Part shown: positions 25,771 to 34,432 of the stretch, in pieces
Position numbering within the stretch: position 1 is the first letter of the stretch
How the letters are laid out: every line of letters starts with the position of its first letter
Assembly: GCA_018820085.1 (NCBI GenBank)
Contig: JAHJOV010000010.1
Coordinates: 12,179-76,178, forward strand
From: Patescibacteria group bacterium
GTDB lineage: Bacteria > Patescibacteriota > Minisyncoccia > Portnoybacterales > UBA2143
DNA length: 64,000 nt
Direction: 5' to 3'
Made by a program: the position numbers and the translations under genes
The notes under the pieces: generated by a model
The model's database searches: none
What the model was told of the DNA's origin: nothing
Seen by the model: the letters and a program-made list of their open reading frames with translations, nothing else

Positions 25771-25869
25771 TTCAAAACCGCCAACTGATTTTTTCGCCCA
25801 AAATTCCGTTCAATTTGGTCGCCGAGCGAAGCGAGGCGAACCACCGAAATTTGACTTTTCCTTACTGGT
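25771..25869. repeat. IR-A, right copy (inverted)
   Basis: Perfect reverse complement of 24259-24357. The continuation of the homology (rc of 24357-24385) resumes at about 25985-26012, beyond IR-B. This suggests IR-B was inserted into a once longer repeat. Confidence 0.9.
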
Positions 25870-25955
25870 GCTCTATTCTGAAAATAGTTCGAACGCATTT
25901 TGCCGCCTGCGGCGGCGACGGCCAGCCCCCAAAAATTTGAGCGGCTTCGCCGCGA
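25866..25955. repeat. IR-B, left copy (90 bp, GC-rich; inverted copy at 34344-34432 with 2 differences)
   Basis: gtgctctattctgaaaatagttcgaacgcattttgccgcctgcggcggcgacggccagcccccaaaaatttgagcggcttcgccgcgatc. It contains the internal palindromes cgccgcctgcggcggcg and ctattctgaaaatag. Its GC content contrasts with the AT-rich surroundings. Confidence 0.85.
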
Positions 25956-26053
25956 TCTTAAAAACTGCCAAAGAACCTGTAAAAAACATCGGCTCAAACC
26001 ACATTTTGTAAAAGAAAATTTTTTCATTGCTAATTATTAAATTAACATTCAAT

Positions 26054-26755
26054 ATGAACAAAGCGAAAAAGCCATGTTGTGGCAAATGGGAAGAACCAGA
26101 AAAAACATCTTCCCCAAAAGCCGCGGCAGAAATAAAACAAGAAATTAAAGTGCGATATGACCAATTTGCCAAAGAAGGTGGCTCAGCTGAAGGTTGTTGT
26201 CCTTTGGCCGGAGAAAAAGCTGAAAGTTTTGCTTTAGAACATGGGCTCTATAGCCAAGAGGATCTTGCTTTACTTCCTAAGTTAGCTATTAATCTTTCTC
26301 GAGGTTGTGGCAATCCCACTAGTTTTGCTGATATCCGGCCAGGTGAGGTAGTTGCTGATTTTGGTTGTGGTGGAGGCATTGATCTTGTTTTGGCTGCTCA
26401 TAAGGTAGGACCAACTGGAAAAGTAATAGGAATAGACTTTGCCCCCCAGATGATTGAAAGAGCAAAACAAGTAATGAAAGAAGCTGGCTTATCTGATAGA
26501 GTTGAGTTTATTTTGATGGATATAGAAAATCCACAGGTTCCAGATAATATTGCTGATGAGGCGATCTCTAACTGTGTAATTAATCTCTGTCCCTGTAAGC
26601 CCTGTGTTTACAAACAAATCTTTGATATTCTAAAGCCTGGGGGTCGTCTGGCCATCTCTGATATTGTTACTATAGGAGATGTTGACCGTAAAATTCGGGA
26701 GTACTTTCAGTCAATTTGGTCAGGATGTGTTGGTGGAGCAATAGAGGAGGGATAA
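26054..26755 (+). CDS. arsM: Arsenite S-adenosylmethionine methyltransferase ArsM-family protein
   Basis: ArsM hallmarks: GCGNPTSFADIRPGEVVADFGCGGGIDLVLAAHKVGPTGKVIGIDFAPQM and the conserved cysteine block ISNCVINLCP, then LKPGGRLAISDIV. N-terminal Cys pairs (CCGKW, CCPLAG). Likely start is the ATG at 26054; the ORF track starts at 26027. Confidence 0.7.
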   Translation: MNKAKKPCCGKWEEPEKTSSPKAAAEIKQEIKVRYDQFAKEGGSAEGCCPLAGEKAESFALEHGLYSQEDLALLPKLAINLSRGCGNPTSFADIRPGEVVADFGCGGGIDLVLAAHKVGPTGKVIGIDFAPQMIERAKQVMKEAGLSDRVEFILMDIENPQVPDNIADEAISNCVINLCPCKPCVYKQIFDILKPGGRLAISDIVTIGDVDRKIREYFQSIWSGCVGGAIEEG

Positions 26756-26775
26756 ATAAAAAAATTATTTGGATA

Positions 26776-27543
26776 ATGTTAAACGATAATAAAATGGAAC
26801 CTCAAAAAAATAATTCTGCTAAAGGCAAGACTTCAAAATCCTCTTTAATCTCAGCTATCATTGGAGTGGGTATAGCAATATTTACATTTGTCTGCTGTGG
26901 TCTTTTAATACCACTTGGTCTTATTGGAGCGGCAGTATTCTTACATCAATACAGAATACCTCTTATAATCTTTGGGGTTTTAATGGTTGGAGTAAGTATC
27001 TTTTTTATGTTAAAAGGTAAAGATATAATCTGTATTTGTAAAGTTTTTGACTTGATAAAGAAACATAAAAAATTGACAATTATCTCAACTGGTATTATCA
27101 CCTGTATTAGTTTAGCGATTTTTGCGGTAAGTAATTTTCTTTTCCCTCCAGCTAGAAATTTCACTAGCCCAATTAATCCAGAATCAACTATATTAGAATG
27201 GAGAAACAATAAAGCCGAATCAGAAATAGTGAGGATAGTCAATTTCTTGGAAGGAAATATTGGAAAAGAAATTGAATTGGCCGGAGAGAGGCGTTTAATA
27301 ACTGGTAAAGAGATAATAAGTATTAAGGTAATAATGTTAGAGTGTTGCACAAAAGGTGAATTTAGAGAGATGTTAGAAAACGTTTCTAAGACTGGTAGAG
27401 TTAAGAGTTTTGATTTTAGTAAAAAGGAAATCCTGGCAGAATTACCAGCTGATGAAATACCAAAAATAGCTGATATCTGGAATGTTGAAAGAGTCAGTTT
27501 TGAGTCTAAATCAAGGGAGACCTGGTTGCAATTAATAAAGTAA
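26776..27543 (+). CDS. Membrane protein with vicinal Cys pair in TM1 (FVCCGLL) and soluble C-terminal domain
   Basis: Three N-terminal TM helices, a CC pair inside TM1, and a CIC motif after TM3. Sits inside the arsM cluster. Function not assignable; possibly metal or metalloid handling. Confidence 0.3.
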   Translation: MLNDNKMEPQKNNSAKGKTSKSSLISAIIGVGIAIFTFVCCGLLIPLGLIGAAVFLHQYRIPLIIFGVLMVGVSIFFMLKGKDIICICKVFDLIKKHKKLTIISTGIITCISLAIFAVSNFLFPPARNFTSPINPESTILEWRNNKAESEIVRIVNFLEGNIGKEIELAGERRLITGKEIISIKVIMLECCTKGEFREMLENVSKTGRVKSFDFSKKEILAELPADEIPKIADIWNVERVSFESKSRETWLQLIK

Positions 27544-27608
27544 GATGATAAAATAAAAAAGGAGGACAAAGGTCGAAAAATTAATTTTAATAGAAGAAGC
27601 TAAAAAAT

Positions 27609-32791: not shown

Positions 32792-32903
32792 ACCGGAATA
32801 AAAGGGTAAGTGTTTACTTACCCTTTCTCTATTGTAGTCATCTAGGACATTGGATTGCTTTTTTTGTATAGATATGTTAGGGTCGCAAAATAGGTTGGTA
32901 ATT

Positions 32904-32952
32904 CCTGCCACGGGGGTGTCGTGGTAACCGCACATTGACAAAAAAATAGGAG
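32904..32952 (+). promoter_or_regulatory. Conserved 5'-UTR hairpin element, copy 3
   Basis: cctgccacgggggtgtcgtggtaaccgcacattgacaaaaaaataggagg, immediately upstream of the ATG at 32961. Confidence 0.55.
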
Positions 32953-32960
32953 GTATAGAA

Positions 32961-34172
32961 ATGGTAATAGTCGACAAACGAACTGAGCAACAGGAAGGAG
33001 CTCGCCTTGTTCAAGAGTGGCTTGTTCTGAAAGATCTTATCAATGAATCAAGTGTAAGTCTGGTAAGGTTCGAAGAAGAGCATACTGAAAAGAAGCGTGT
33101 CTTTGACACAATACTTGCAGACATCGAGGGTCAACTCGCCCCTCAAAAAGCGGCATTAGACGCTGCCAAACAAAAAGTAAAAGAGGCTGAAGGTAAAAGA
33201 AAGGATGCTCACACTCAGCTCAATGCAACTTCCAAAGATTTCGAGGGTTACGATCAAATCAAAGGCGAGTATGTTGTTGCCCTGGCTGATAAAAAGCAGA
33301 CTATGGAGGCGAAAGAGCAAGCGCAAAATGCTTATGACCAAGCTCTAAAACCTTTTGAAGGGCGGTTAAGCACGAGTCTCAAAGCCAAGCAAGAAGCGAG
33401 TGATAGTTTAAAGGAAGTCAAAGAGGAGCTTAAAAAAAGTGAACATCAATTCCTGGAGCTCAGCCAGCGCTGCTTTGAGCGTAAAGATGCTCAAGATCTT
33501 TTTGACCAAGAAATGACTACTCTCGTCGAAACTAGCATTGACGTCAGGAAAAAAATTAATCTGCTTATACCCGTGCGTGACCAGGCGGCTGATATTCTTC
33601 GTAACTTTGTGTCAGAGAATCCAACTGGTTGGTCAACCGGCGCCATTGACGCCATCCAGCGCTACCTAACGTGGATTAACCGCGCCCAAACTTATGGAGT
33701 CATCCTAGAGGATAACCCAAATTATTGGTATGAACTTGATGATGTTTTGAAACTTTTGGGTATAGCTCATATCTTCAAGGTCCTAAAAGTAGATACGAGC
33801 AAACTCGAGAGTGCGGCTAAAGCCGGTGAGCTCCACGGAAAGGATAACGAAATTGTCAGTAGCGAGCAATTTTTAGAAATTAGGCAAAAAAAGCTTTCTA
33901 CACCAAGACTAAAAGCCTTTGCACTCGGCGAATTAGCTGTTGATGAAATAATGATCTCGATGGCGCAAGAACTGTATGAACGAGATGCTACAGCTCTTGA
34001 GGAATTAGGAGAGTCAGGTAAACTGTCTAAACAGGCAGTTACTGCCCTTCGCGAGGCCGGCATCACCAAAGCTTCGCAGCTCCAGCGGCTTAGCATGCAT
34101 CAATTAGCCGGAGTTCGTGGAATTGGCGAAAAACGCGCTATGCAAATCTTTCGCGTTATCGCAAAGCGCTGA
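32961..34172 (+). CDS. Coiled-coil protein with C-terminal helix-hairpin-helix DNA-binding motif
   Basis: Mostly predicted coiled coil (E/K/Q-rich). C-terminus QLAGVRGIGEKRAMQIFRV is HhH-like. Function unknown. Confidence 0.3.
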   Translation: MVIVDKRTEQQEGARLVQEWLVLKDLINESSVSLVRFEEEHTEKKRVFDTILADIEGQLAPQKAALDAAKQKVKEAEGKRKDAHTQLNATSKDFEGYDQIKGEYVVALADKKQTMEAKEQAQNAYDQALKPFEGRLSTSLKAKQEASDSLKEVKEELKKSEHQFLELSQRCFERKDAQDLFDQEMTTLVETSIDVRKKINLLIPVRDQAADILRNFVSENPTGWSTGAIDAIQRYLTWINRAQTYGVILEDNPNYWYELDDVLKLLGIAHIFKVLKVDTSKLESAAKAGELHGKDNEIVSSEQFLEIRQKKLSTPRLKAFALGELAVDEIMISMAQELYERDATALEELGESGKLSKQAVTALREAGITKASQLQRLSMHQLAGVRGIGEKRAMQIFRVIAKR

Positions 34173-34343
34173 GACGTCTTTTCAGGACAAAAGCAATAAA
34201 AAGCACCATATCCGCTTTGGTAACAAAGCGGATTTTTTTAAAGAATTTGCCGCTAAAGCAGTAAATTTTTCAAGCTCGTTTTCCTTGAAAAATTTACTGT
34301 AATGAGTTATTATTAACTCATAGAAAAACTTGAAATTGTCAAA

Positions 34344-34432
34344 GATCGCGGCGAAGCCGCTCAAATTTTGGGGGCTGGCCGTCGCCGCCGCAGGCGGCGA
34401 AATGCGTTCGAACTATTTTCAGAATAGAGCAC
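34344..34432. repeat. IR-B, right copy (inverted)
   Basis: Reverse complement of 25866-25955 with one substitution and one 1-nt indel. Confidence 0.85.

Follow-up and report, generated by a model that had tools for sequence, protein, structure and literature searches.

Inverted repeats next to a serine recombinase gene in a Patescibacteria group bacterium probably enclose the cargo of an integrative element at the 3' end of a tRNA-Arg gene

The described mobile elements that come closest to the locus reported here are the integrative elements and prophages of large serine recombinases (LSRs; the phiC31, Bxb1 and A118/LI integrase type), the SCCmec and enterococcal cassette chromosome elements (SCC and ECC; CcrAB acting at rlmH), and the tycheposons of Prochlorococcus. 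Known LSR attP sites measure about 50 bp. The att sites of SCCmec and ECC have dyad symmetry (PMC6222049). A tyrosine recombinase is used by 910 of 937 tycheposons and an LSR is present in a minority; replication genes occur in many of them, and tandem junctions have been seen (10.1101/2020.12.28.424599). Our locus lies in a stretch of 64,000 nucleotides from a Patescibacteria group bacterium (assembly GCA_018820085.1, contig JAHJOV010000010.1, positions 12,179 to 76,178), which we call the window and in whose coordinates all positions are given. An earlier note, made from the sequence alone, had drawn attention to 8.5 kb of accessory genes bounded by an inverted repeat (IR-B) and adjacent to a recombinase gene. 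We consider this segment likely to be the cargo compartment of a single LSR integrative element (approximately 24263-34432) inserted at the 3' end of a tRNA-Arg(TCT) gene. With the LSR prophages, the proposed element shares a three-domain LSR and hybrid junctions that have a short core in common with the target. It resembles SCCmec and ECC in the site-specific use, by an LSR, of the 3' end of a conserved housekeeping gene for insertion, in highly variable cargo and in the occurrence of remnants and arrays at the same site, and the tycheposons in bringing small adaptive cargo modules to tRNA genes of streamlined genomes.

The element, about 10.2 kb long with boundaries placed by family comparison, is organised as follows: tRNA gene, core GCACCA, left arm of a second inverted repeat (IR-A), LSR gene, right IR-A arm, inverted core, left IR-B arm, cargo, right IR-B arm, core GCAC and flank (Table 1, where the left and right arms are denoted A, A' and B, B'). 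Both outer arms, A next to the tRNA and B' at the far end, abut a core of 4-6 nt that is identical to the 3' terminus of the tRNA. The same core is present at three junctions in the window, inverted at the middle one and in direct orientation at the two outer ones (GCAC(CA) at 24259-24264 and GCAC at 34429-34432), the latter as expected for the ends of an LSR element. A complete inverted copy of B'-core-A, formed by the left IR-B and right IR-A arms, separates the recombinase gene from the cargo genes, which diverge from it, and is flanked by the inverted promoter-like stretches U' and U (25749-25767 matches 26026-26008 at 19/19 positions; the median inverted U/U' match is about 24 nt in 42 loci). 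This layout is a trait of the whole family described below, and assembly GCA_018821905.1 repeats that of the window at 99.99% identity, with an identical recombinase.

The inverted repeats themselves are well defined. IR-B, detected by repeat finding, is about 96 nt long and 97.8% identical (one substitution and one indel, with one mismatch within the outermost 8 nt; blastn-short E about 1e-41 within the window), and the slightly shorter pair of the earlier note (25866-25955 and 34344-34432) lies inside the arms as we delimit them. The palindrome cgccgcctgcggcggcg that the note had seen is present in both arms. IR-A is 99 nt long and 100% identical, and starts 6 nt inside the tRNA gene, which ends at 24264. 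The overlap between A' and B, noted earlier as the 4 bp gtgc, is indeed the reverse complement of GCAC from the end of tRNA-Arg; it contains TGGTGC, the reverse complement of the longer tRNA terminus, and extends to 8 nt (actggtgc) with one mismatch. An Rfam search (E up to 1) over 23-38 kb returned two tRNAs only, so neither IR-A nor IR-B is a known RNA. The foreign composition claimed for the segment is borne out by a GC content of 0.394 in the element; the remainder of the window has 0.333 (0.296-0.355 in 10-kb windows outside the element).

Table 1. Features of the proposed element, its cargo and its flank (window coordinates; attachment-site assignments are proposals)
Feature	Position	Strand	Remarks
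tRNA-Arg(TCT)	24188..24264	+	Integration target, attB left half; ARAGORN; Rfam tRNA 70.9 bits
Core 1	24259-24264		GCACCA, last 6 nt of tRNA-Arg(TCT)
IR-A left arm (A)	24259..24357		Antisense of the recombinase's conserved last ~33 codons; proximal attachment arm, attL = tRNA/A
Large serine recombinase (LSR)	24223..25719	-	498 aa, intact
U'	25720..25772	-	Promoter-like region upstream of the recombinase; inverted copy U precedes the first cargo gene
IR-A right arm (A')	25773..25871		Non-coding duplicate of the recombinase 3' end; ends in inverted core TGGTGC (25866-25871)
IR-B left arm (B)	25864..25959		Conserved arm (TCTATTCT.AAAATAGTTCGAACGCATTT), GC hairpin 1, C-rich spacer, GC hairpin 2
N (25960-25979) and X' (25982-26007)	25960..26007	+	Two short sense fragments of the recombinase gene, fused, between B and the cargo promoter
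Cargo	26008..34322	+
U	26008-26053		Promoter-like region
arsM1	26054-26755
Membrane protein	26776-27543		No Pfam match
CobO	27792-28346
HMA-arsM2	28403-29704
Decayed A-U junction	29758-29876		A-model nhmmer match 29758-29853
Retron-type reverse transcriptase (RT)	30011-31015	-
Third arsM, 3' remnant	31155-31223		From comparison with locus L009
RmuC-like	31562-32791
Coiled-coil/helix-hairpin-helix (HhH) protein	32961-34172
K	34323..34340	+	18-nt recombinase fragment just inside IR-B'
IR-B right arm (B')	34342..34436		Distal attachment arm, attR = B'/core/flank
Core 3	34429-34432		GCAC, followed by TA instead of CA
Flank F	34437..36740	+	DUF4145 (34562-35368), DHOdh-like gene (35633-36667); outside the element

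Support comes from the recurrence of this arrangement in bacteria of the candidate phyla radiation (CPR). Eighty loci were obtained from a scan in which each species was represented by one genome, and at least 433 species representatives encode a relative of the recombinase. A further 120 metagenome contigs were retrieved by the hairpin pattern of IR-B, a search not anchored on the recombinase, and profile models of A, B and X were applied to both sets; an earlier metagenome scan anchored upstream of tRNA-Arg had given 0 matches. In the 80 species loci, the 3' end of the recombinase gene adjoins a tRNA in antisense. The last 99 or so nucleotides of the gene recur, inverted, 35-55 nt upstream of it in about 50 of these loci, with the 27 nt that precede them (X') repeated some 110 nt farther away. 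The block of about 110 nt in between is homologous to the left IR-B arm of the window and is conserved in 35 aligned loci; in about 30 loci, an inverted near-identical copy of it occurs 0.75-1.4 kb away and encloses one variable gene that is divergent from the recombinase gene. The A'/core/B junction was found in 89 loci and the tRNA/A junction in 92, and the tRNA targets comprise 14 amino-acid classes and 31 anticodons in many CPR lineages.

Most of these elements are far smaller than that of the window. The median length of the segment bounded by IR-B is 1,092 bp (73-2,793 bp, n=75); at 8,555 bp, that of the window is the largest, and typical elements measure about 2.7-3 kb and carry one gene. 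Cargo differs at nearly every locus while arms and recombinase are conserved; it includes methyltransferases, dehydrogenases, NUDIX, HisG and PurM-like proteins and many secreted proteins of uncharacterised role. Arrays of cassettes occur (L099, L140, L046, L050 and L209), as do extreme reductions: L036 is reduced to a cargo-less B/B' palindrome (about 85 nt) and L109 to A-X-N'-B' (about 270 nt). The loci were too divergent for an all-against-all cargo comparison to be informative about cassette swapping. A scan of viral contigs gave only two partial matches, at contig ends, so the family is not phage-borne.

Which parts of the structure act as ends is suggested by its reduced forms. About 18 recombinase-less loci consist of a tRNA, A (99 nt), promoter-like U, one gene, B' (96 nt) and flank, and an autonomous simple form, with the recombinase between A and B' and no internal copy, is found at L071, L094 and L098. 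Because both forms keep just A and B', we regard these as the cis-acting ends, with B'-core-A as their joined form, and we infer that B'-core-A is attP. The sequence of the final 4-8 nt of B' changes in step with the tRNA 3' end occupied at each locus (gcacca, ccgcca, cagcca, ggagcca, tccacca), and a core of 2-10 nt (mode 6) is common to all three junctions in 31 of 37 loci. Counted from TGG on the reverse complement, the motif TCGAA starts at nt 24 in arm B, ungapped in that stretch in all 35 aligned loci, but at nt 19 in the tRNA, where canonical tRNA geometry predicts it and where it was verified in the window. In serine integrases, the motif bound by the zinc-ribbon domain lies 5 bp closer to the centre in attB than in attP (Rutherford et al., PMC3783163). 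Since the spacing fits this 5-bp rule, a further likeness to the LSR prophages, it supports a role of the tRNA end as attB half-site and of B as a tRNA-mimicking arm of the P type, on the assumption that TCGAA is the zinc-ribbon-domain binding motif.

The mechanism that we propose is one in which the LSR would recombine attP (B'-core-A) with tRNA 3' ends serving as attB. The T-loop sequence TTCGAA would act as the zinc-ribbon-domain motif, its distance from the crossover being 5 bp shorter in the tRNA than in arm B, and integration would regenerate the end of the tRNA. Cassettes of the A...B' type that have no recombinase would be mobilised in trans, and the large cargo of the window may have arisen through fusion of former cassettes with decay of the internal junctions.

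Strain comparisons provide evidence of mobility. A contig from a related strain (L017) is 99.95% identical to the window over 10.7 kb of the left flank and lacks 24263-36740: position 24262 is joined to 36741, the tRNA-Arg ending in GCAC, followed by TG and then by the sequence just upstream of tRNA-His. The earlier proposal of an integrative island therefore holds in so far as the segment lies beside a tRNA and a recombinase gene and is missing from this strain. It needs correction as to the ends, as IR-B is not the pair that delimits the island; these are tRNA/IR-A (24263) and IR-B'/flank (34432), the left IR-B arm being internal. In another species, two contigs that are otherwise 99.9% identical (L172 and L209) differ by one cassette of 1,105 nt, which sits between the tRNA-Leu core and the resident cassette and is flanked by a 57-nt direct repeat. 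In a second pair (L037 and L151, the same flanks being 100% identical), a deletion of about 150 nt removes the centre of the internal A'-core-B copy, which may be either a polymorphism or an assembly collapse. These were the only occupied/empty pairs among about 200 fetched loci, and an exact empty site was not among them.

Several observations weigh against the interpretation as an LSR element. The stretch missing from L017 is 2.3 kb longer than the proposed element, the DUF4145 and DHOdh-like genes being absent as well, so that the right boundary (34432) is placed by analogy with the family. No arm-like sequence was found by the profile models of A, B and X at the right end of this extra block, just before tRNA-His; the block (GC 0.359) may be what remains of an older island, or its absence may reflect a strain-specific deletion. 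A search for the circular form yielded neither a circular contig nor a B'-core-A-X junction beside an intact recombinase 3' end among the contigs, except for the degenerate L089. Core 3 reads GCACTA rather than GCACCA, which could block excision if the crossover takes place within CA. Arms A and B gave no convincing evidence of dyad symmetry, and arms of 96-99 nt with 97-100% identity within a locus exceed what protein binding alone explains. A gene for a directionality factor is not evident. Finally, only a single insertion orientation is seen, though two equivalent attP copies on a circle would predict both. We therefore disfavour a circle with two equivalent attP sites, and the internal copy is probably not a second attP. 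The recombinase and cargo segments were likewise rejected as independently excisable units, as their flanking cores are inverted and not direct.

The inner boundaries of the repeats bear on how these originated. On its inner side, IR-B ends in a GC hairpin (h), another copy of which lies in the recombinase gene. Past this hairpin, the near arm is followed by N and X', and K precedes the far arm. N is 20/20 identical to 25582-25563 (codons ~46-52, nt 138-157 of the recombinase gene), X' is 92% identical to 24384-24359 (codons ~446-455, nt ~1336-1365), and K matches nt ~95-112 exactly (25600-25617, minus strand). The N-X' arrangement is found family-wide, and the K-hairpin-B' structure is present in other loci. 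IR-A, for its part, ends inwardly in the small palindrome TTTTACAAAA, at the X'/A' boundary. As the boundaries of the inverted repeats carry palindromes and recombinase fragments, fold-back or template-switch duplications are suggested, and the repeats probably arose by fold-back duplication at small palindromes. Arm B as a whole was considered as a derivative of the 5' part of the recombinase gene and rejected, since only N (20 nt) and K (18 nt) are so derived and positions 1-95 of B score no better than shuffled sequences. The hairpins of B show modest compensatory change (82.7% of cells paired, double changes in 9 of 12 pairs, at most 1 of 500 shuffles as good); hairpin 1 is missing from three loci.

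Our best guess is that the internal inverted attP serves to bind the recombinase, its identity with the true arms being maintained by gene conversion, and that it may be regulatory. We also see some chance, though clearly below even, that this copy is a functionless by-product of the ancestral fold-back or template-switch event, held identical by gene conversion, with IR-B being of importance only through its right arm, as attR. The palindromes (hairpin h and TTTTACAAAA) and the fragments N, X' and K at the inner boundaries would fit such an origin, as would the simple forms that do without the copy and two loci (L037, L058) in which its centre is deleted yet the recombinase is intact. The arms evolve in concert, which agrees with this too: identity within a locus is 98.8% for IR-A and 96.7% for IR-B but only 75.4% and 69.6% between loci, which points to gene conversion or to repeated regeneration of the arms. 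However, the copy is retained intact in 89 loci whose recombinases have diverged to about 64% amino-acid identity, and its position and orientation, between two promoter-like regions, are constant, whereas a neutral block of 235 bp would be expected to be lost often from streamlined CPR genomes.

Long, near-perfect inverted repeats with inverted cores raise a different question, namely whether IR-A and IR-B each bound a segment that the recombinase, or homologous recombination, inverts in the manner of Hin/Gin or shufflon-type switches. Recombination at such cores would invert and not excise, many assemblies break at the recombinase gene, and two recombinase-less loci with the order tRNA, A-U-R1-N-X', cargo (L141, L178) derive most simply from an inverted recombinase segment that subsequently suffered a deletion. 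The breaks are, however, equally explained by near-identical recombinase genes among co-occurring species. A single orientation of both segments (recombinase toward the tRNA, N-X'-U beside the internal copy) was found in 46 of 46 loci with full context and in 89 of 89 junction loci, which does not support the large invertible region envisaged in the earlier note. The repeats are symmetric, hence no gene or promoter would be switched, and no alternative gene ends occur at the repeats; LSRs are not known to recombine attP with attL or attR (PMC3783163). Frequent inversion is not supported at the consensus level and we consider this explanation improbable, although the two recombinase-less loci suggest that rare inversion has probably taken place on evolutionary time scales.

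Still less probable is the other suggestion of the earlier note, that IR-B resembles a miniature inverted-repeat transposable element (MITE) and that the 8.5 kb are a composite transposon formed by two chance or independent insertions. The arms do carry hairpins, as do many MITEs, and the gene-less or cargo-less derivatives L036 and L109 exist. A dispersed, free-standing repeat was never encountered: blastn-short found just the two copies in the 64-kb window, and in the 120 contigs retrieved by IR-B itself, the repeat pairs around a cargo gene or adjoins A, a tRNA or the recombinase gene, or else the contig is a short fragment. Moreover, the two arms of one locus are far more alike than arms of different loci, and the core always joins the left arm to IR-A'. 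We also considered an assembly artefact, as the 99 nt of IR-A are perfectly identical and equal k-1 for k=100, the length expected of chimeras in a de Bruijn graph, and as contigs of other assemblies end around the recombinase gene. This can be regarded as extremely unlikely, since the layout is present with arms of 96-106 nt in dozens of independent assemblies (IDBA, SPAdes and MEGAHIT, with NODE_, k141_ and scaffold_ names and different k) and is reproduced in GCA_018821905.1.

The recombinase has the domains of an LSR. Its sequence starts MKYIIYARKST, with the R-x-S motif of the nucleophile, and the N-terminal catalytic domain is matched by Pfam Resolvase (PF00239, 2.4e-21, residues 4-150), followed by Recombinase (PF07508, 3.7e-14, residues 172-259) and Zn_ribbon_recom (PF13408, 7.6e-08, residues 272-324); the coiled-coil signal is limited to a weak match of leucine-zipper type (residues 342-375, E 0.0067), below the cut-off. 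More than 7,800 homologues exist, the best 120 having 78-90% identity at 88-100% query cover (98-100% for most), while a look-up of the exact protein gave no record. CcrB is the best NCBIfam match, at 99.9 bits against a cut-off of 900 bits, a score too low for a Ccr orthologue. The open reading frame (ORF) has no stop codon of its own and runs antisense into the tRNA (24223-24258). The same applies to every locus examined among homologues P0001-P0099, where the ORF enters the occupied tRNA and the proteins have variable C-terminal tails with [DE]SNL, the antisense translation of the T-loop. As the homologues are conserved up to ...NIGSNHILQNRQLIFSPKIPYNLVAERSEA..FPYWC (also as ...QNRQLIFSPKIPYNLVAERSEA..FPYWC) and then diverge into antisense-tRNA translations, the left arm of IR-A is the coding 3' end of the recombinase gene, reaching into the tRNA. 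The right arm is its inverted, non-coding duplicate, about 50 nt upstream of the start codon.

The cargo of the window, annotated with Pfam, PADLOC and NCBIfam, has the gene content given in the earlier note (two ArsM-like methyltransferases, CobO, a membrane protein, a retron-type RT, an RmuC-like protein and a coiled-coil/HhH protein). These seven genes compare with a single one in most copies of the family. A decayed A-U junction persists among them, without the core-proximal arm and with a 34-nt insert. In a related contig (L009), a diverged arsM is joined directly at 31155 and followed by RmuC, the HhH protein, B' and the flank. Positions 1-1127 of that contig take the place of 29705-31154: CobO, arsM2 and RT are missing, and a diverged ArsM of 300 aa continues into 31155, only the last ~70 nt of this type of arsM being retained in the window. 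The different arsM joined at this position shows the cargo to be a mosaic, and it looks like several former cassettes that became fused after their internal junctions had eroded.

The RT matches PADLOC RT_II-A (2.6e-41) and, below the cut-off, the retron St85 family of NCBIfam (6e-37), and its RmuC-like neighbour matches the PADLOC model for RT-associated RmuC (DRT; 5.9e-29), making the two (30011-32791) a candidate defence pair. The non-coding gap of 510 nt between them, upstream of the RT, has an unremarkable fold (z -1.5). A 12-nt direct repeat (31342-31353 and 31361-31372) is present in this region. The window cargo can thus be described as an arsenic-methylation set plus a candidate RT/RmuC defence pair.

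The window contains other repeats as well. Intergenic repeats of about 63 nt (82-95% identity), unrelated to IR-A and IR-B, occur at 3143-3208, 13851-13913, 38199-38263, 43531-43594, 51159-51227 and 54385-54447, and are palindromic, as they match each other in both orientations. A restriction-modification cluster (13500-20800, upstream of pilus genes) encodes three N6_N4 methyltransferases and EcoO109I-like and BsaWI-like endonucleases, and contains an 82-nt direct repeat (13908-13989 and 17374-17455).

The comparison with described systems also brings out what sets the family apart. LSR elements and prophages have arms of about 25 bp, against conserved arms of 96-99 nt here; in our elements, many different tRNA 3' ends are targeted by a co-varying core, one arm coincides with the 3' end of the recombinase coding sequence, the interior contains an additional inverted copy of the putative attP, and neither phage genes nor an evident directionality factor are present. 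SCC elements differ in that here a tRNA replaces rlmH as the target, the recombinase is not a Ccr orthologue, the format is small, with one gene, and the long near-perfect IR-A and IR-B pairs are nested. The tycheposons belong to a different phylum and have no inverted-repeat architecture. In Tn3 and gamma-delta, the res site lies between the divergent tnpA and tnpR genes, so that here too a serine-recombinase site is found between divergent genes, one of them encoding the recombinase. This may offer a regulatory parallel for the internal attP, but by analogy only, as the crossover core here is about 100-150 bp from either start codon. Cassette-like arrays (such as L099 and L209) recall the integrons; their sites are unrelated, and an integron was rejected because the recombinase is a serine recombinase and not an IntI tyrosine recombinase with attI and attC. 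The family is thus distinct in five respects, namely the targeting of tRNA 3' ends by means of a co-varying core, arms about 100 nt long, the location of one arm inside the coding end of the recombinase gene, the internal inverted attP, and a very small, single-gene format. A description of such an element family was not found in the literature, which does not prove that none exists.

As a wider and more speculative proposal, which we put forward tentatively, the family may be a CPR-wide platform for LSR-mediated gene capture, in which tRNA 3' ends would accumulate a recombinase module of about 1.6 kb and exchangeable, mostly single-gene cassettes (arms of about 96 nt). Target choice would depend on mimicry of the tRNA T-arm together with a core of 4-6 nt that could be re-matched to any tRNA, and the internal inverted attP would have a function, such as docking or regulation, by which cassette and recombinase are coupled; such a system would be integron-like but use serine-recombinase chemistry. 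Current serine-integrase models do not explain long arms that evolve in concert or a conserved internal inverted attP. The recognition logic, a tRNA T-loop motif plus a short target-matched core, is directly testable and may be of interest to serine-integrase engineers. Little is understood of the routes by which CPR bacteria, with their tiny genomes, acquire accessory genes; here, very small recombinase elements from hundreds of CPR species would deliver single, highly diverse genes to the 3' ends of tRNA genes.

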